Source: Syntrophobacterales bacterium (lineage in GTDB: Bacteria > Desulfobacterota > Syntrophia > Syntrophales > UBA2192). Taken from it: DNA of 64,000 nt. The position numbers were made by a program, and so were the translations under genes. Where the stretch lies: contig JAGPKU010000001.1 of the NCBI GenBank assembly GCA_018053845.1, forward strand, positions 101,235 to 165,234, read 5' to 3'. Positions 1 through 63,456 of the stretch are shown in pieces (position 1 is the stretch's first letter; each line of letters opens with the position of its first letter). The notes beneath the pieces were generated by a model. It was not told the origin of the DNA. It searched no databases and saw only the letters and a list, made by a program, of their open reading frames with translations.

Positions 1-1476
1 AAGATCCCCACCGACGGCGTCGTCCTGACGGGCGCATCGGCCGTGGACGAGTCCATGCTGACGGGCGAGAGCATGCCCGTGACGAAGGAACCCGGCAGCG
101 AGGTCTACGGGGCCACGATCAACCGCAGCGGCAGCTTCACCTTCCGGGCGACGAAGATCGGCGCCGATACGGCCCTGGCCCAAATCATCCGCCTCGTCGA
201 GGAGGCCCAGGGCTCCAAGGCGCCCATCCAGCGCATCGCCGACCGCGTGGCCGCCGTGTTCGTACCCTCCGTCATGGCGATTGCCGCCGTCACCTTCGTC
301 GTCTGGGCCTTTTTCGTCCCCGAGCCCCACGTCACGCGGGCCCTGCTCAACTTCGTCTCCGTGCTGATCATCGCCTGCCCCTGCGCCATGGGACTGGCGA
401 CGCCGACGGCCGTCATGGTGGGCACGGGGATGGGCGCCGAGAAGGGAATCCTCATCAAGGGGGGCGAGAGCCTCGAGAAGGCGCACAGGCTGACCCTGGT
501 CGTCTTCGACAAGACGGGCACCCTCACCGTGGGCGAACCCCGGGTGACCGATGTCGTGACGGCCCCCGGCATCACGCGAAGCCGCGTGCTCCGGATCGCC
601 GCCTCCGTGGAGGCCCTCTCGGAGCATCCCCTGGCCCGGGCCATCGTCGAGACGGCCCGGCGGGAAGGGATCCGTCCCGAGCCCGTCGAGGGGTTCGAGG
701 CCCTCTCGGGTCTCGGCGCGCGGGCCGCCTTGAACGGCGCAGCGCTTCTTCTCGGCAACCGGAGGCTGATCGAGCAGGTCTCCCCGGGTCTCAACGGCCT
801 TGCCGAGGCGGGCGAGCGGTTATCCTCGGAAGCGAAGACCTGCGTCTTCGCGGCCGAGGGGGGGCAGGTGCTGGGCATCGTGGCCCTTTCGGACGTCCCG
901 AAGGACACGGCCGCCGAAGCGGTGGAGGCATTGAAGGGCATGGGCCTCAAGGTGGCCATGATCACCGGCGACAACGAGAACACGGCCCGGGCCACGGGCA
1001 GGGCCCTCGGCATCGACCGGGTGATGGCGGAGGTCCTGCCCGGCGAGAAGGCCGAGGAGATCCGCCGCCTGAAGGAACGGGGCGAGACCGTGGCCATGGT
1101 GGGAGACGGGATCAACGACGCGCCGGCCCTCGCGGCCGCCGACATCGGGATCGCTGTCGGCGCGGGGACCGACGTGGCCATCGAGGCCTCCGACATCACG
1201 CTCATCCGCGACGACCTGCGAGCCGTGCCCGAGGCGATCCGGCTGTCCTTCCGGACGATGCGGACGATCCGGCAGAACCTGTTCTGGGCCTTCATCTACA
1301 ACGTCATCGGGATCCCCGTGGCCGCGGGGGTTCTTTATCCCTTCCTCGGGGTCCTTCTCAACCCCGTGTACGCCGCCGCCGCCATGGCGCTCAGCTCCGT
1401 GTCGGTCGTGACCAATTCGCTGAGATTACGGTGGTCCTGGCGGCTCACGCCGCAGGCAAATGCCCGAAAGCTGTGA
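1..1476 (+). CDS. copA: Heavy-metal (Cu/Ag-type) translocating P1B-type ATPase, C-terminal part (5' end outside window)
   Basis: Frame open from base 1 (KIPTDGVV...). TGES, CPC membrane metal site, DKTGTLT phosphorylation motif and GDGINDAPAL hinge. Stop TGA 1474-1476. Confidence 0.93.
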   Translation, partial: KIPTDGVVLTGASAVDESMLTGESMPVTKEPGSEVYGATINRSGSFTFRATKIGADTALAQIIRLVEEAQGSKAPIQRIADRVAAVFVPSVMAIAAVTFVVWAFFVPEPHVTRALLNFVSVLIIACPCAMGLATPTAVMVGTGMGAEKGILIKGGESLEKAHRLTLVVFDKTGTLTVGEPRVTDVVTAPGITRSRVLRIAASVEALSEHPLARAIVETARREGIRPEPVEGFEALSGLGARAALNGAALLLGNRRLIEQVSPGLNGLAEAGERLSSEAKTCVFAAEGGQVLGIVALSDVPKDTAAEAVEALKGMGLKVAMITGDNENTARATGRALGIDRVMAEVLPGEKAEEIRRLKERGETVAMVGDGINDAPALAAADIGIAVGAGTDVAIEASDITLIRDDLRAVPEAIRLSFRTMRTIRQNLFWAFIYNVIGIPVAAGVLYPFLGVLLNPVYAAAAMALSSVSVVTNSLRLRWSWRLTPQANARKL

Positions 1477-1576
1477 AGTCGGGAAGCTTTGAATCCCGGA
1501 CAAGCCGGCAGCCGTGCGCAAGTCGTCCGATACTCCGAACTTCCCAGCTTCCGAGCTTCCTGACTTCCGTCTTTTC
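1475..1576. repeat. Octad-phased GAAG/CTTCC imperfect hairpin (periodic-hairpin element R1)
   Basis: GAAG/GAAG/GAAT/GACA at 1475,1483,1491,1499 and CTTCC at 1540,1548,1556,1564 (strict 8-nt phase). 1475-1493 pairs with 1549-1567 (18 of 19, 2 G-U). Begins inside the copA stop codon and is followed by TCTTTTC. Confidence 0.7.
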
Positions 1577-7380: not shown

Positions 7381-7442
7381 CGCGAAAGCCTTTCCCCGGG
7401 GATCTCGACAGGCCCGGCGGTGAGGCGCTTTTAGCACATGAC

Positions 7443-7533
7443 GTGAGGAAGCGCGGAAGAGCAGAAGAGCGGAGTCGATTTCCATTCCCCCTGTCTCGAG
7501 CCGCTCTTCCTCACTTCCGATCTTCCGATCCTC
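7443..7533. repeat. Octad-phased GGAAG/CTTCC imperfect hairpin (periodic-hairpin element R3)
   Basis: GGAAG/GGAAG/AGAAG/GGAG at 7447,7455,7463,7471 and CTTCC at 7506,7514,7522 (8-nt phase). Perfect core GAAGAGCGG (7464-7472) / CCGCTCTTC (7501-7509), flanked by phased GGAAG:CTTCC helices. Confidence 0.7.
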
Positions 7534-12337: not shown

Positions 12338-12339
12338 TC

Positions 12340-12444
12340 AGAAGGCAAGAGGGTTTGAAGGCGAAAAGGGTGGAGAATCGGAGGCTGACAGGGGCTGCAG
12401 ACGTATTCAACGTTCTCACCCTCTCACCTTCTTGCCCTCTCCGG
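12340..12444. repeat. Dispersed octad-phased hairpin element, family GGnnnnAG/TCTCACC (copy R4; homologous to 30557-30651)
   Basis: Octads GGCAAGAG GGTTTGAA GGCGAAAA GGGTGGAG AATCGGAG from 12344 (8-nt phase). Right arm TTCTCACCCTCTCACCTTCT (12413-12432) is 19/20 identical to 30631-30650. Left arm is about 80% identical to 30557-30592. Arms pair (12368-77:12413-21, 12357-64:12424-31, 12348-53:12435-40). Confidence 0.8.
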
Positions 12445-12502
12445 TTCATGAAATGAACATCCGGACGGCAACCGGATCATATCGAAAGGTCGTTTCAGAT
12501 CT

Positions 12503-14550: not shown

Positions 14551-14626
14551 TGGCAGGTTGCAGGTGACAGGTCAAAGACTGTTGGCAGGGATAGCCTGTT
14601 ACCTGTTACCTGTTACCTGTTCCTGC
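14551..14626. repeat. Heptad-phased CAGGT/ACCTG hairpin with CCTGTTA x4 tandem repeat (periodic-hairpin element R5)
   Basis: CAGGT at 14554,14561,14568 and CCTGTTA at 14595,14602,14609,14616. 14554-14572 pairs with 14601-14619 (19 positions, 1 mismatch, 2 G-U). The repeat array contains the stop codon of the L,D-transpeptidase gene (14606-14608). Confidence 0.8.
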
Positions 14627-15946
14627 GTTTGCCAGCTCCCTCGACTCGGCAGGCCCGACAATCACCCCGTCGATTTCCAGGTCGACCTTGAGGCGCTTCA
14701 CGGCGGCCAGGGCTGTTTTTCGGTCCGCGTAGGGTCCGGCGAGGACCTGGTAGCGATTGTCCTTCCGCACCACCCGGGCGGGGATCTGGGGCCCCTGGTG
14801 GTTGAGCACGGCGGCCATTCTCCGGGCGTTGTCCTCCCCGATGGTCTCGTCGGCGCGGACATACCAGGCCCCGGGTTTCATCGCCGGCACCCGGGGCTGT
14901 CCGGTCAACTCGGCGGGCCGCGGGGCCTCCGCGGCCCCGGCGATCATCCCCTGTAGATCTTCGCCGCCCGCGAGCACCGGGACGGGGATGCCCCTGGCCT
15001 GCGTCAGCGTTTCCTCCACGCGATTCCAGTCCACGCGCAGCTTTTCTTTCCTTTCGATCTCCTTGAGCCTCGCGTAGAGCCGCTTCCGGATCTCCGCGGC
15101 ATCGAGCTCTTCCTGGGGCTCGTGGGCCTCGAGGTAGAGCATGCCGCCCGCGCGGCCGATCAGGTAGGGCTGATTCACGATGTGCACGGGGGTCCGGACC
15201 GGCACGACCCGGTAGAGCTTCTCCACGTCCTCCGGGTAGAGCCGGATGCACCCGTTGGTCGCCCGCAGGCCGATGCTGAAGGGCTTGTTGGTCCCGTGGA
15301 CCACGTAGCTCGCCCGGCTCAGGTAGAGTGCGTACTCTCCGAGCGGGTTGTCAGGCCCCGGCGGCACTTCGGCGGGCAGCGGGTCGCCCCTCTTGGCGTG
15401 GTCGCTCCGAATCGAGGCGGGCACGTACCAGGTCGGCCGGACGGCCTTGCGCACCACGGACATCTCGCCCAGCGGCGTGGAGCGCCCCTCTTCCCCGATG
15501 CCGACGGGATAGGTGACGATCGCCCGGTTCTTCCCCCCGTGGTAGAACAGCCGCATCGCCGCCAGGTTGATCACGATCCCCTGCCGGGGGGCGTCGGGCA
15601 GAATGAACATCAGGGGCAGCACGACCCGGCTGCCTGCCGGGGGCAGCCAGACGTCCACGTCCGGGTTGGCCGCCTTGACGGCGTCGTGGCCGAGGCCGAA
15701 ATGCCTCGCGATGTCGGGCAGCGTGTCGCCCTCCCGGGTGCGGACCACGGCGAGCCGGCCGATGACCCGGTCGCCCCCGGGGTCGCCGAAGACGTGCCGC
15801 TCGAGGCGCGTTCCCGGCCGATCGGGCTCGGCTGTCGGCCCGGGCCCGGTCAGCCGCCACTTCGGCGGCGCCGCGCAGGCACTGAGCAGCAGACCCGCCG
15901 CCGCGAGGATGACGAGACGGGCGGTTCTGTGAGACCGAAGGTTCAC
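14606..15946 (-). CDS. L,D-transpeptidase (YkuD) lipoprotein with N-terminal LysM and C-terminal SPOR domain
   Basis: Lipobox LLLSAC. LysM ([25 protein letters not shown]). YkuD catalytic HGT....G...SNGCIRL. SPOR-like C-terminus ([22 protein letters not shown]). GTG 15946 with SD GGGAGGAAAGG, overlapping the upstream stop by 4 nt. Confidence 0.9.
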
Positions 15947-21388: not shown

Positions 21389-21580
21389 TCCCGACCCGTC
21401 CCCTCCCCGCCGTGTCCCCCCTCGCCCGCCCCGTCTCCGGACATTCGGGAGCCGATTTCCTTTCGGTCCACCGTCTGCCCGTTGCTTTTTGACGCGGAAT
21501 CGTTTATAAAAGAGAAAAATATAACCGGTTTCGGGGTTCGGGGGCCTTGCCGCTCCCGGAGGGAAATCCGGATGGTCGGG

Positions 21581-21617
21581 CCGCCATTCGATCGAGCGAT
21601 CGGATGGCGGTTTTTTT
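21581..21617 (+). terminator. Rho-independent terminator-type hairpin 190 nt downstream of epmA
   Basis: CCGCCATTCGATCG (21581-21594) / CGATCGGATGGCGG (21597-21610), one G-U, followed by TTTTTTT (21611-21617). Confidence 0.75.
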
Positions 21618-22931: not shown

Positions 22932-22971
22932 GAAGAGGCCGCCCGGTAAGCCGGGCGGCCTCTTCCTTTCC
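22932..22971. terminator. Bidirectional stem-loop between convergent genes
   Basis: Perfect 15-bp stem GAAGAGGCCGCCCGG (22932-22946) / CCGGGCGGCCTCTTC (22951-22965), loop TAAG. The U-tract is weak (CTTTCC). Confidence 0.6.
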
Positions 22972-30312: not shown

Positions 30313-30556
30313 GGGTCCCAGGCTTCGCGGGCCGGGGGTTGAAGAACCAAGATCGATCTCGCCGCCGAGGCTCGGGCCTTTCGCTTTCCCCGGACCCGAT
30401 CCCCGCGACCCTCTCCCCTTGACCCTCTTTTCTGCTTCGTCGGCGCACGTTACCACAGCCCCGCCGCCGCGGGCAACCCCTTTGTGACGAAAACCCCGTA
30501 AAACAAAAGGACCACGGGATAGTCGTATCCCATGGCCCTGTCTCATTCGGACGGAT

Positions 30557-30651
30557 AGAAGATAAGAGGGTAAGAGGGCGAGAAGGTGGGAGGACGAAAG
30601 ACGTGCGGCAGGCGGGCAGCCTATCCACGTTTCTCACCGTCTCACCTTCTG
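30557..30651. repeat. Dispersed octad-phased hairpin element, family GGnnnnAG/TCTCACC (copy R8; homologous to 12340-12444)
   Basis: Octads GATAAGAG GGTAAGAG GGCGAGAA GGTGGGAG GACGAAAG from 30561. ACGTG(30601-05):CACGT(30626-30) and 30581-30591:30640-30650 pair. TTCTCACCGTCTCACCTTCT (30631-30650) is 19/20 identical to 12413-12432. Confidence 0.8.
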
Positions 30652-30658
30652 AATTTGT

Positions 30659-30919
30659 CTAGTCGGGGATGACCTTGAAGACCTCATCCCCCGGCCGACA
30701 CCGGTCCGACACCTTGACGCCGATGTAGTCGCCCACCACGGCCTTTTCGACCTTCGCGTTGTTGACTTCCATGGACTCGACGACGTTCTCGAAATTCGTC
30801 GTGTGGCCGACGTACTTGAGCGTGTCCCCCACCTTCACCTCGCCGGCCGTGACCTTGATCGCGGCGACGCTGGGCTTTGCGAAGAATTTCACGATCTCGC
30901 CGACTTTCTCCTCCGCCAT
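30659..30919 (-). CDS. Small translation-factor domain-II-like beta-barrel protein (86 aa), function unknown
   Basis: MAEEKVGEIVKFFAKPSVAAIKVTAGEVKVGDTLKYVGHTTNFENVVESMEVNNAKVEKA..GD.IGVKV resembles stand-alone EF-Tu domain-2-like proteins. SD AAGGAGG. Confidence 0.75.
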   Translation of the reverse strand: MAEEKVGEIVKFFAKPSVAAIKVTAGEVKVGDTLKYVGHTTNFENVVESMEVNNAKVEKAVVGDYIGVKVSDRCRPGDEVFKVIPD

Positions 30920-45893: not shown

Positions 45894-47087
<1,194 letters not shown>

Positions 47088-50168: not shown

Positions 50169-54293
<4,125 letters not shown>

Positions 54294-54314
54294 GTTGGGA
54301 CTCCTTTAAAAACT

Positions 54315-54401
54315 GGCTAAAGGCTCCGGGCGAAGGGCTTACGGCTAGAGACAACATGCTTTCTGCCTCGCCTATTGCCGTATGCCTTAAGCCATATGCC
54401 G
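54315..54401. repeat. Heptad-phased GGC/GCC hairpin module 1 in the rpoB-rpoC spacer (element R9)
   Basis: GGC at 54315,54322,54329,54336,54343 (strict 7-nt phase) and GCC at 54370,54377,54384,54391,54398. GGC:GCC triplets pair in register, with additional flanking pairs (for example 54315-54324 with 54384-54393, 9 of 10 positions). Confidence 0.75.
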
Positions 54402-54426
54402 TTCTTTCTTCCTATCTGTCGTGACC

Positions 54427-54494
54427 GGCTCGGGGCCAAGGCTCCGGAAACGTTTTCTTCCTTTTCCATACGCCTTAAGCCATAAGCCCTTTGC

Positions 54495-54495
<1 letters not shown>
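54427..54495. repeat. Heptad-phased GGC/GCC hairpin module 2 in the rpoB-rpoC spacer (element R10)
   Basis: GGC at 54427,54434,54440 and GCC at 54472,54479,54486,54493. Exact repeats with module 1: AAGGCTCCGG (54320-29 = 54438-47) and GCCTTAAGCCATA (54384-96 = 54472-84). The last GCC unit overlaps the rpoB stop codon. Confidence 0.75.
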
Positions 54496-58589
<4,094 letters not shown>

Positions 58590-61947: not shown

Positions 61948-62024
61948 TGGCAGGCCAGGAGGGATTCGAACCCCCAGCATCCGGATTTGGAGTCCGGCGC
62001 TCTAGCCGTTAGAGCTACTGGCCT
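61948..62024 (-). tRNA. tRNA-Trp (anticodon CCA), CCA end encoded
   Basis: Minus strand AGGCCAGTAGCTCTAACGGCTAGAGCGCCGGACTCCAAATCCGGATGCTGGGGGTTCGAATCCCTCCTGGCCTGCCA. The cloverleaf folds by eye (anticodon arm CCGGA-CTCCAAA-TCCGG, T-arm GGGGG-TTCGAAT-CCCTC). Confidence 0.93.
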
Positions 62025-62045
62025 GTACCCCGTTCCTTCCCGCCG

Positions 62046-62195
62046 TTACTTGGTTTCCTTGTGCGGCGTGTGGGTCTTGCAGAACCTGCAGAACTTCTTC
62101 ATCTCGAGCCGGTCCTGCATGGTCCGCTTGTTCTTCGTCGTCGTGTAGTTGCGGCGCTTGCATTCCGTGCAGGCCAGCGTAATGTTGTTTCGCAT
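62046..62195 (-). CDS. rpmG: 50S ribosomal protein L33 (bL33, Cys4 zinc form)
   Basis: [49 protein letters not shown]. Begins 21 nt after the 3' end of tRNA-Thr(GGU). Confidence 0.95.
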
Positions 62196-62216
62196 CGATG
62201 TCCACCCTGGCTGAAA

Positions 62217-62292
62217 TGGAGCCCACGACCAGGATTGAACTGGTGACCTCATCCTTACCAAGGATGTGCTCTACCGACTGAGCTACGTGGGC
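62217..62292 (-). tRNA. tRNA-Thr (anticodon GGT), CCA encoded
   Basis: GCCCACGTAGCTCAGTCGGTAGAGCACATCCTTGGTAAGGATGAGGTCACCAGTTCAATCCTGGTCGTGGGCTCCA. Anticodon loop TTGGTAA. Confidence 0.93.
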
Positions 62293-62364
62293 TGAAAACC
62301 GGCAACCCGGCATCCGGCGCCGGCCGATCGCCTCGGCCGCCCCGGTCCGTTCTCCTGGAAAAGT

Positions 62365-62440
62365 TGGAGCGGGAAACGGGATTCGAACCCGCGACCCTCA
62401 GCTTGGAAGGCTGACGCTCTAGCCACTGAGCTACTCCCGC
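62365..62440 (-). tRNA. tRNA-Gly (anticodon TCC), CCA encoded
   Basis: GCGGGAGTAGCTCAGTGGCTAGAGCGTCAGCCTTCCAAGCTGAGGGTCGCGGGTTCGAATCCCGTTTCCCGCTCCA. Anticodon loop CTTCCAA. Confidence 0.93.
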
Positions 62441-62501
62441 TCACCCCCGCCCGGGGCTCACTCACGGTCCTCCTTCGGGGCGCGGTGAATGAGAAAAAAT
62501 A

Positions 62502-62586
62502 TGGTGGAGGGGGGAGGGTTCGAACCTCCGTAGGCTGCGCCGGCAGATTTACAGTCTGCTCCCTTTGACCGCTCGGGAACCCCTCC
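62502..62586 (-). tRNA. tRNA-Tyr (anticodon GTA), long variable arm, CCA encoded
   Basis: GGAGGGGTTCCCGAGCGGTCAAAGGGAGCAGACTGTAAATCTGCCGGCGCAGCCTACGGAGGTTCGAACCCTCCCCCCTCCACCA. Confidence 0.93.
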
Positions 62587-62612
62587 GGATCTCGTGATCG
62601 CTATGGGCGATA

Positions 62613-62688
62613 TGGAGCTGGCGATGGGACTCGAACCCGCAACCGGCTGATTACAAATCAGCTGCTCTACCTGTTGAGCTACGCCAGC
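62613..62688 (-). tRNA. tRNA-Thr (anticodon TGT), CCA encoded
   Basis: GCTGGCGTAGCTCAACAGGTAGAGCAGCTGATTTGTAATCAGCCGGTTGCGGGTTCGAGTCCCATCGCCAGCTCCA. Anticodon loop TTTGTAA. Confidence 0.93.
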
Positions 62689-62762: not shown

Positions 62763-62802
62763 AGGTTAGTGTGAAATCCGTCTTTTGTCAAGGATTTTTT
62801 TA
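62763..62802 (-). promoter_or_regulatory. Promoter of the tRNA/rpmG/secE... supercluster (with A-tract UP-like element)
   Basis: Minus strand GTAAAAAAATCC-TTGACA (62791-62786), 17-nt spacer, TAACCT (62768-62763), about 70 nt upstream of the first tRNA. The local sequence is AT-rich. Confidence 0.55.
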
Positions 62803-62806
62803 CAAC

Positions 62807-62890
62807 GGGCTTGAGGCAAAAAGCGAAGGGCTGAAGCAAAAGACGTTCAAATCCATCCTTTTCCCCCTTGGCCCCGCGCCCTTTGCCTAT
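62807..62890. repeat. Heptad-phased GGC/GCC hairpin (element R11; same family as the rpoB-rpoC spacer modules)
   Basis: GGC/AGC at 62808,62815,62822,62829 and GCC at 62871,62878,62885. 62815-62842 is about 70% complementary to 62859-62888. Exact matches to the rpoBC spacer: GCGAAGGGCT (62823-32 = 54330-39) and the 17-mer 62878-62894 = 54486-54502. Confidence 0.75.
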
Positions 62891-63456
62891 TCTTCACCGA
62901 ATACATCGGCCGAAAAAAGGTAGATCTCCGTCTCCGGGTCGCGCCAGGCATCGGGGGCAAGGCCCGCCTTCCGGCAGGTTTCCCTCAGGAACGTCTCCCG
63001 GTCCCATCGCCACTCGGTGGCCACCTGGGGCAGCAGCAGCCCCGCCCGCGCCCCCTTGCGGATGTAGAGGCCGTGCGTGCCGATTTCGATGGCGCCCACA
63101 TCGGCGACCCGGCGCAGGGGGGTGAGCACGGAGATCTCCACGCGGAGGTCCTTGAGTTCCTCCCTGCGCAGGGGCGGGAACCGGGGGTCCTGGAACGCCG
63201 CGGCCACGGCCATCTCCTCGACGGTCTGCGCCAGGGGCTTTTTCGCCTCGATCATGCCGATGCAGCCGCGCAGCTTGCCCCGCTTCTTCAGGGAGACGAA
63301 GGCCCCGCGCTTCTCGTCCGGTGTCCCCTGTCCTTCGGCCGCCGGCGGGGCTTCCCCCCTCAGCTCGGCCTCGATGGATTCGCGGGCGATCCGCAGGAGG
63401 GCCTGCTTCTGCTCGCCGGTGAGTCCCCGGTCGGTTGCGGCCTTGCCGTCTGCCAT
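62887..63456 (-). CDS. AmmeMemoRadiSam system protein A (AMMECR1 domain)
   Basis: 189 aa from MADGK. RGAFVSLKK.GKLRGCIG, PLRREELKDLRVEISVLT.L, GTHGLYIRKG.RAGLLLPQVA are AMMECR1 signatures. Confidence 0.9.
   Translation of the reverse strand: MADGKAATDRGLTGEQKQALLRIARESIEAELRGEAPPAAEGQGTPDEKRGAFVSLKKRGKLRGCIGMIEAKKPLAQTVEEMAVAAAFQDPRFPPLRREELKDLRVEISVLTPLRRVADVGAIEIGTHGLYIRKGARAGLLLPQVATEWRWDRETFLRETCRKAGLAPDAWRDPETEIYLFSADVFGEE

Follow-up and report, generated by a model that had tools for sequence, protein, structure and literature searches.

In the window, that is, the whole 64,000-nucleotide stretch of DNA analysed here, one 17-mer, GCCCTTTGCCTATTCTT, lies across the stop codons of two genes, rpoB and the gene of an AMMECR1-family protein. 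It is quite likely, in our assessment, that this repeat is the chance join of two old GAA-TAG gene ends with two independently evolved heptad hairpins, which belong to a class of arrays abutting stop codons. The 17-mer is best explained as a coincidence within a known kind of repeat. The class itself, inverted tandem-repeat hairpins of period 7 or period 8 that abut stops and turn over quickly, is typical of the lineage.

Occurrence of the 17-mer and its chance expectation

Both exact copies reported in the initial annotation were located (Table 1), and a search of the window at up to two mismatches gave no third site. The copies are 8.4 kb apart on the same strand. Read on the minus strand, each is AAGAA-TAG-GCAAAGGGC, covers the last codons and the TAG of its gene and is followed by a GGC-period-7 array and then by a GCC-period-7 array. 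The 17-mer had been described as the outer edge of GGC/GCC heptad hairpins; the arrays are present at both sites, but the minimum-energy fold at rpoB leaves the first heptad, GGCAAAG, unpaired and opens its stem with GGGCUU.

Table 1. Positions of the genes, repeats and hairpins discussed in the text (window coordinates).
Feature	Position	Strand	Basis or remark
Period-8 hairpin, GAAG.../CTTCCNNN x4	1475..1567	+	Starts within TGA of upstream + strand gene
E5, period-8 hairpin, AGAGGGNN / TCTCACCN, copy 1 of dispersed family	12348..12440	+	4 nt past TGA
Period-7 hairpin, GTGGCAG.../CCTGTTA x4	14553..14626	+	Tandem repeats; fold z = -5.3
L,D-transpeptidase gene	14606..15748	-	Translation ends ...AGTGNR*
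E9, period-8 hairpin, copy 2 of dispersed family	30565..30650	+	About 8 nt from TAG of 30659-30919 (-)
rpoC CDS, GTG start, 3′ of spacer	50169..54293	-	ORF list
hp2, rpoC-proximal hairpin, 5 GGC + 5 GCC heptads	54310..54404	-	Heptad scan, fold
hp1, rpoB-proximal hairpin	54427..54495	-	Heptad scan, fold
17-mer copy at rpoB end, AA-GAA-TAG-GCAAAGGGC	54486..54502	-	Exact match
rpoB CDS	54495..58589	-	ORF list, translation, Pfam domains on identical L001 gene; ends ...LDVELVEKE*
A-tract + TTGACA, putative UP element and -35 of tRNA operon promoter	62785..62800	-	Sequence
AMMECR1 3′ hairpin	62814..62888	-	Fold -39.2 kcal/mol; AG of TAG within stem
17-mer copy at AMMECR1 end, AA-GAA-TAG-GCAAAGGGC	62878..62894	-	Exact match
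AMMECR1-family CDS (AmmeMemoRadiSam system protein A), 189 aa	62887..63456	-	ORF; ends ...FSADVFGEE-TAG

Shuffling gives an expectation of 0 matches for that particular word, which is the wrong null for judging the coincidence. The length of the repeat is unremarkable, because the window (G+C 65.6%) already holds 17 directly repeated 17-mers and its unrelated coding regions share chance repeats of 19-20 nt, caused by codon bias. What stands out is that the two copies sit in the same register on their stop codons. TAG is the stop of 27 of the 76 predicted genes in the window, three of which end in GAA-TAG. When these three gene ends and the GGC periodicity are allowed for, the 17-nt register on two stops at this distance is a residual coincidence, to be expected in roughly a few per cent to tens of per cent of such windows. 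The comparative data (see below) explain the common register without common descent.

A scan of 185,579 species genomes (596 Gb) returned 46 matches of the 17-mer, against about 70 by chance on our own estimate for 596 Gb. Four Syntrophaceae or deltaproteobacterial relatives among them have one 17-mer each, at AMMECR1, and a fifth Syntrophales match, L040, is unrelated in sequence. The metagenome scan gave 81 matches, and five of five related contigs have the 17-mer at AMMECR1. The 17-mer was found at no other gene end in the four related genomes or the retrieved related metagenome contigs. The contig L001 contains both 17-mers and is one of 13 public contigs, from anaerobic-digester metagenomes, on which the AMMECR1 protein is identical; the relatives at 80-90% nucleotide identity are metagenome-assembled genomes (MAGs) labelled Syntrophaceae or Syntrophales.

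The rpoB end and the rpoB-rpoC spacer

The RpoB of the window ends four residues after LDVEL, as do 72 of the 116 homologues in which the C-terminal motif is recognisable (..IEEE, ..VEKE, ..IEDE). The 17-mer is absent at the rpoB ends of L053, L054, L056, L073 and L142-L145, and only the window's species has it there. L053 and L054 (93% and 86% amino acid identity to the window) both keep GAA-AAA-GAA-TAG-GC before quite different arrays, namely CAGGCAA / GCCTGNA heptads in L053 and GAGGCAT / GCCT.. heptads in L054, an arrangement that speaks against a donated stop at rpoB. These two have AAGAATAGGC in common at rpoB, and therefore this end of the gene predates whatever stands behind it today. 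TAA closes the gene in L142 (94% amino acid identity; GAG-AAA-GAG, then ACAGGCR / CSACCCT heptads), in L143 (93%; GAA-AAG-GAA, then GGCRAAT / GCCCTWA heptads) and in L073 (87% nucleotide identity; GAG-AAA-GAG, then AGGGTAM / CCTCGNT heptads). The spacers of L056, L144 and L145 (82-84% amino acid identity) are without arrays, and their rpoB genes have the stop in an unchanged place (TGA, TAA and TAG, respectively). Five relatives thus have five different heptad arrays and three more distant ones have none, the ...VEKE residues and the position of the stop being fixed while the arrays differ. At the rpoB-rpoC junction, all six subclade members keep an array and its complementary partner arm, the sequence of which is wholly replaced, despite flanking genes that are 86-94% identical; the rpoC start, GTGGAAGA, is conserved in all relatives. 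At the level of sequence, these comparisons demonstrate that spacer arrays turn over rapidly in place between conserved flanking genes.

The spacer of the window holds two hairpins, with GGC heptads, four to five per arm, at 54315-54349, 54370-54404 and 54472-54499. In hp1, four GGC heptads run from the G of TAG and face the partner arm GGAGCC TTGGCC CCGAGCC. In hp2, pairing is confined to 3-bp GGC/GCC cores with 4x4 loops between them (z about -1.8). In the rpoB spacers, sense folds have no consistent advantage in stability.

In the multiple alignment, the single hairpin of the relatives (e.g., that of the L143 spacer) falls opposite hp2, and hp1 appears as about 95 nt extra in the window's species. 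Between the repeat arm of hp1 and its counterpart in hp2, 27 of 33 positions are identical, with a score of 34 that none of 500 shuffles reached, while the match between hp1 and the AMMECR1 hairpin consists of the 9-mer alone and has a score of 18, reached by 97 of 500 shuffles. AAGGGC of hp1 is aligned with AACGGC of hp2. Judged from these alignments, hp1 arose by local duplication of the rpoB-rpoC hairpin in the window's species. Given the similarity of hp1 and hp2, the rpoB half of the coincidence comes from this duplication and not from the AMMECR1 element.

The AMMECR1 gene end and its hairpin

Pfam PF01871 was called on the identical AMMECR1 protein of the public contigs. A Memo-family gene precedes the gene. 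The modal end of the protein lies three residues past FSADVF (31 of 120 homologues), and ...FGEE is the commonest tail. A distant orthologue without the repeat, L141 (64% identical), ends in ...FCEE with the codons GAA-GAG-TGA. The alignments thus establish the ends of both RpoB and AMMECR1 as ancestral; the terminal residues sit at the modal position and are not the lineage-specific additions that the initial annotation had in mind.

The 17-mer is present at AMMECR1 in at least nine related species; GGTGAAGAATAGGCAAAGGGCGCAGGGC and the hairpin are kept in L020, L021, L023, L027, L073, L078, L120, L123 and L130. The 5′ arm of the hairpin is GGCAAAG GGCGCGG GGCCAAG GGGGAAA and the 3′ arm is ...CAGCCC TTCGCTT TTTGCC, and AGGCAAAGGGC of the 17-mer forms the predicted base of the stem. 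Conservation of the hairpin extends over five species at 80-90% identity. Folded in the mRNA sense, it is more stable than the antisense form by 12-18 kcal/mol in all six species compared, because of 5-9 G.U pairs. No compensatory pairs were detected by RNAalifold (0), the sequences being too conserved for covariation.

In close relatives, AMMECR1 extends beyond the stop position of the window and ends in ...EEQA*, ...EEQDKG* or ...EDEAKGKGL*. In L138, for instance, the protein is 98% identical and ends in ...EEQA* at a new TAG, after which eight different GGC heptads follow; arrays encode the AMMECR1 tails and stops in L138-L140.

Directly 3′ of the AMMECR1 hairpin, and kept in all relatives, are an A-tract and TTGACA, which we take from the sequence to be part of the promoter of the tRNA operon (putative UP element and -35). 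The promoter consensus scan did not call this TTGACA because the -10 is weak.

Period-7 and period-8 arrays across the window

The 8.4 kb of non-coding DNA in the window was scanned for recurring 3-mers, an array being defined as at least four units that share a 3-mer. Five period-7 arrays were found against 0.14 expected and three period-8 arrays against 0.1; period 5 gave one array, and periods 6 and 9-12 gave none. In the coding DNA of the window, periods 9 and 12 appear instead of 7 and 8. With conservation at no more than 3-4 of 7 positions, the arrays escaped a strict self-similarity scan (17 of 21 matches). Most of the arrays form hairpins whose 5′ arm is rich in purines and whose 3′ arm is rich in pyrimidines. 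This order of arms was rejected as a sign of strand specificity, as the property survives reverse complementation; strand specificity was judged from sense and antisense fold energies together with G.U counts, and for several arrays the two energies are alike.

About six of the ten listed arrays begin 0-8 nt from a stop codon (at 1475, 5503, 12342, 30650, 54495 and 62888). The claim that other periodic elements touch stops is borne out: the hairpin at 1475-1567 pairs the GA of TGA, and the L,D-transpeptidase takes its six C-terminal residues and its TAA from the CAGGTAA array at 14606-14626, (CAGGTAA)3 being read as Q V T G N R stop. The tails TGNR* and AGNR* are found in many relatives. The intuition that joins arrays to stop codons has substance in general, but not for the rpoB and AMMECR1 pair.

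E5 and E9 resemble each other over about 95 nt, arms and loop included (12338-12450 against 30555-30658; z = 15.5), and this octad pair is a true dispersed repeat. The octad motif occurs in none of the 145 loci fetched. At Rfam gathering thresholds neither 17-mer site was matched, and the window yields five tRNAs and one nhaA-I riboswitch alone. Elsewhere in the window, e.g., after 10395 and near 22940, there are ordinary terminators, which combine a T-run with a perfect GC stem.

Origin of the repeat on two stop codons

The initial annotation attributed the 17-mers to descent from one mobile or copy-pasted hairpin that brings along the last codon or codons, the TAG and 9 nt of adjoining 3′ UTR. 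Such an element would fit with hp1 as an extra block right after the rpoB stop in the window's species only, with the existence of a dispersed periodic hairpin in the window (E5 and E9), and with the ability of arrays to code tails and stops, as in the L,D-transpeptidase and in the AMMECR1 of L138-L140. Nevertheless, both proteins stop at the ancestral residue, where array-less orthologues end as well; AAGAATAGGC, common to L053 and L054, is older at rpoB than hp1; and hp1 is significantly similar to the adjacent hp2 and, beyond the 9-mer, not to the AMMECR1 hairpin. Moreover, the four related genomes and the retrieved related contigs hold no further copies, neither terminal inverted repeats nor target-site duplications were seen in the sequence, and around hp1 no target-site duplication is visible. 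For this pair of genes we find a mobile origin barely credible. Another route to identity would be ectopic gene conversion or a microhomology-mediated template switch, by which the rpoB array would have received a patch of AGGGC from the old array of AMMECR1. Pre-existing identity in AAGAATAGGCAA at both loci would permit such a transfer: the first 12 nt were shared beforehand, the rpoB of L053 has AAGAATAGGCAA, the AMMECR1 copy of the 17-mer is the older one and is conserved, and the two loci are close by on one strand. Yet a patch of about 5 nt is indistinguishable from chance, and within the 33-nt paralogous block a single substitution after the duplication suffices to turn the hp2 form into that of hp1, which makes the transfer very improbable in our view.

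The chance join of two old gene ends and two hairpins would proceed as follows. RpoB (...Lys-Glu) and AMMECR1 (...Glu-Glu) each end with GAA and TAG at the stop position of their orthologues, and a first hairpin unit, GGCAAAG-GGC, stands after each stop in two hairpins that would have evolved independently, that of AMMECR1 being old and hp1 young. A GGC core recurs every 7 nt in both arrays and the bases in between are rich in purines, so that only about 4-6 free bases need to coincide. Replication slippage and tandem duplication presumably let the arrays grow, shrink and swap their unit where they stand. They would expand as far as the stop codon and rarely into the ORF, because a period that is not divisible by 3 shifts the frame.

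Possible function of the arrays

The arrays are probably retained as a stem-loop of the transcript that starts at the stop codon. This would be a 3′ or intercistronic element of the REP type, acting as a barrier to 3′ exonucleases or as a structure that modulates processing or termination. RNA folding may not be the selected property of every array, considering that hp2 pairs through its 3-bp cores alone and with the modest z given above. More broadly, and tentatively, we raise the possibility, which we hold to be somewhat doubtful, that period-7/8 inverted arrays are a functional class of post-stop RNA elements throughout Syntrophales and related Desulfobacterota. Arrays would then be kept at junctions such as rpoB-rpoC through complete replacement of their sequence and would start at the stop since their targets would be terminating ribosomes or the 3′ ends of mRNAs. 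The continual remodelling of C-termini and stops would be a side effect, which might account for the TGNR* end of the L,D-transpeptidase and for the ...EEQA*, ...EEQDKG* and ...EDEAKGKGL* ends of AMMECR1.

The arrays might instead serve as sites for a nucleoid-associated or regulatory protein at the DNA level, the RNA hairpin being incidental, as suggested by analogy with the paired tandem repeats of Geobacter metallireducens (PMC2700814). The complementarity of hp2 in 3-nt cores alone, with a fold barely better than shuffles, and the similar sense and antisense fold energies of several arrays are consistent with this proposal. Units at orthologous loci differ completely, however (GGCTTAA, CAGGCAA, AGGGTAM, ACAGGCR), and therefore one sequence-specific protein cannot easily explain the arrays. 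Together with the strand-specific G.U pairing of the AMMECR1 hairpin in six of six species, this renders sites in DNA an improbable explanation. It could also be that the arrays are neutral by-products of slippage in non-coding DNA, with units of 7-8 nt and hairpins created by inverted duplication. The extreme turnover at one locus between well-conserved genes accords with such neutrality, as does a report, cited in PMC4679880, that heptanucleotides are the commonest long simple-sequence repeats in prokaryotes. Set against neutrality are the retention of an array and its complementary partner arm at rpoB-rpoC in all six subclade members, the conservation of the AMMECR1 hairpin among species that are 80-90% identical, and the purine-rich 5′ and pyrimidine-rich 3′ arms of all the hairpins examined; we judge neutrality rather unlikely.

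Several narrower candidates were dismissed. The consensus scan finds no intrinsic terminator at either 17-mer site; a U-tract is lacking, the sequence after the AMMECR1 hairpin being GUUGUAAAAAAA. A G-quadruplex is not general, as the rpoB arrays of the window have GG only; at least four GGG runs at 7-nt spacing are present in the arrays of L021, L023, L073 and L138. Mimicry of Shine-Dalgarno and anti-Shine-Dalgarno sequences by the purine and pyrimidine arms suits the octads, not the GGC heptads.

Implications

Annotating an exact repeat over two stop codons, as described here, as a trace of a mobile element would be a mistake, and the C-termini of RpoB and AMMECR1 are ordinary and ancestral. 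What the lineage does have are hypervariable hairpins of 7-8 nt units abutting stops, which persist at a junction, within the subclade that has them, with their sequence fully replaced, and which sometimes code for the last residues of a protein and its stop. These arrays bear on the annotation of gene ends in MAGs, add to the knowledge of how simple-sequence repeats shape bacterial 3′ UTRs, and relate to the Geobacter paired tandem repeats of 2009.

Comparison with known systems

In the literature searched, these hairpins are not described for Syntrophales. REP and BIME sequences of Enterobacteria and Pseudomonas are imperfect palindromes located in 3′ UTRs and intercistronic spacers, often a few nucleotides from the stop. 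In RNA, the REP stem-loops protect the upstream mRNA, and REPs less than about 15 nt from the stop reportedly affect translation termination, a finding that is said to be due to Liang, Rudd and Deutscher in 2015. REPs, as conserved sequences of 20-40 nt, number in the hundreds of copies and owe their mobility to RAYT transposases. The hairpins of the window resemble REP/BIME in their 3′ or intercistronic position close to the stop and differ in being internally periodic, individually different and not multicopy in the four related genomes and the related contigs. With intrinsic terminators they have in common the position of a stem-loop just 3′ of the stop; in contrast to those, their stems are long and interrupted and lack a U-tract.

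The STRR sequences of cyanobacteria and the TAACTGA repeats of Beggiatoaceae are intergenic heptanucleotide repeats that may overlap the stop of the gene before them and whose unit is able to give stops in all frames (PMC4679880). The CAGGTAA array that supplies the stop of the L,D-transpeptidase may be compared with them. STRR and TAACTGA are direct repeats of one genome-wide unit and mostly lie upstream of start codons (PMC4679880), whereas in the window the unit differs from locus to locus, and a complementary array completes each array to a hairpin.

The closest known analogue of the arrays in the window is found in Geobacter metallireducens, likewise a deltaproteobacterium (Desulfobacterota), in which paired sites on opposite strands, divided into classes 1-3, consist of 3-5 tandem hepta-, octa- or nona-nucleotide units (Aklujkar et al. 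2009, PMC2700814). They are mostly intergenic, with a spacer of variable length, their function is unknown, and their authors guessed at the binding of IHF or HU (PMC2700814). By BLAST, the families are multicopy with conserved unit sequences, comprising 24, 21 and 8 pairs (PMC2700814). An explanation of these repeats since their report in 2009 was not found in the literature searched. The arrays of the window share with them the tandem units of 7-9 nt, at least three in number, and, in the window as well as in relatives, the succession, at a variable distance, of GGC arrays and opposite-strand GCC arrays. Unlike the Geobacter sites, the GGC arrays are specific to their locus and their units are replaced between close relatives; among the arrays of the window, a multicopy family with conserved units, as in Geobacter metallireducens, is represented by the E5/E9 octad pair only. 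Finally, in contrast to the IHF or HU proposal for Geobacter metallireducens, fold predictions point to strand-specific RNA pairing in at least one of the hairpins described here.

Variable gene ends at the arrays

The hairpin of the AMMECR1-family gene (62814-62888, minus strand) lies 3' of a coding sequence whose product ends in ...FGEE, and comparison with relatives revealed that this end is not fixed. In locus L138 (878-1010) the AMMECR1 protein is 98% identical and ends in ...EEQA*, followed by eight GGC heptads quite different from those of the window, while the C-termini in two other relatives (L139 and L140) read ...EEQDKG* or ...EDEAKGKGL*. In all three loci the AMMECR1 frame continues beyond the position of the window's stop and into sequence that corresponds to the array; the boundary between coding sequence and array therefore shifts among close relatives. 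A conserved A-tract and TTGACA directly 3' of the hairpin are likely the promoter of the tRNA operon. Within the tRNA cluster tuf is absent between tRNA-Thr and tRNA-Trp; the sole tuf of the window lies at 45894-47087, after fusA.

An array-encoded protein end was also observed for the L,D-transpeptidase, whose final six residues and TAA stop (...A G T G N R *) come from CAGGTAA heptads translated in each of the three reading frames. Tails of the TGNR* or AGNR* type recur in many homologues of 70-82% identity, and the QQAASRQ-type tails of other homologues also look array-encoded.

Coordinates of the listed features
Feature	Location	Strand	Remarks
L,D-transpeptidase/SPOR gene	window 14606-15748	minus	3' end in heptad array 14606-14626
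nhaA-I riboswitch-like RNA	window 21534-21590	plus	Rfam RF03057, scoring 49.9 bits (gathering threshold 37); small ORF downstream
tRNA-Thr, Tyr, Gly, Thr, then Trp-rpmG-secE-nusG cluster	window 61948-62688	minus	
GGCAAAG GGCTAAA GGCRAAR... heptads	L080 940-1010		
GGCAAAG GGCTAAA GGCRAAR... heptads	L084 144-230		
GGATTGC-type repeats	L064 1330-1440		

Hairpins of the rpoB-rpoC spacer and elsewhere

A period-7 hairpin occupies the rpoB-rpoC spacer in six related lineages (window 54294-54494, L053, L054, L073, L142 and L143), and six different repeat units are found in the six. The spacer measures 201 nt and holds two hairpins in the window, as against 90-110 nt in the other five, and that of more distant relatives is 42-84 nt long and lacks an array. 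Gene calling splits the rpoB of two relatives, L053 (1-3984) and L056 (1-3981), into ORFs of ~1000 and ~327 aa, which probably reflects frameshifts of metagenome assembly and not biology.

The arms were compared for polarity in the window hairpins (1475-1567, 7440-7517, 12348-12440, 14553-14626, 30565-30650, 54310-54495 and 62814-62888). In every one the 5' arm is rich in purines and the 3' arm in pyrimidines, never the reverse, and this order is identical whichever strand is read. At least four GGG runs at 7-nt spacing, a canonical G-quadruplex motif, are present in the 5' purine arms of the relatives L021, L023, L073 and L138; the window's own rpoB arrays contain GG runs only.

The period-8 hairpins at 12338-12450 and 30555-30658 share homology over ~95 nt, loop included (z = 15.5), and in both of them AGAGGGNN arms pair with TCTCACCN arms. 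The two are a true dispersed repeat family. Each copy has a stop codon 4-8 nt away, and their orientation to the upstream gene is opposite.

Short-period arrays, together with a chance occurrence of the 17-nt word that spans the rpoB and AMMECR1 stop codons, were also met in three unrelated metagenome contigs of 43-52% G+C (L080, L084 and L064), which indicates that such arrays are not restricted to Syntrophales.
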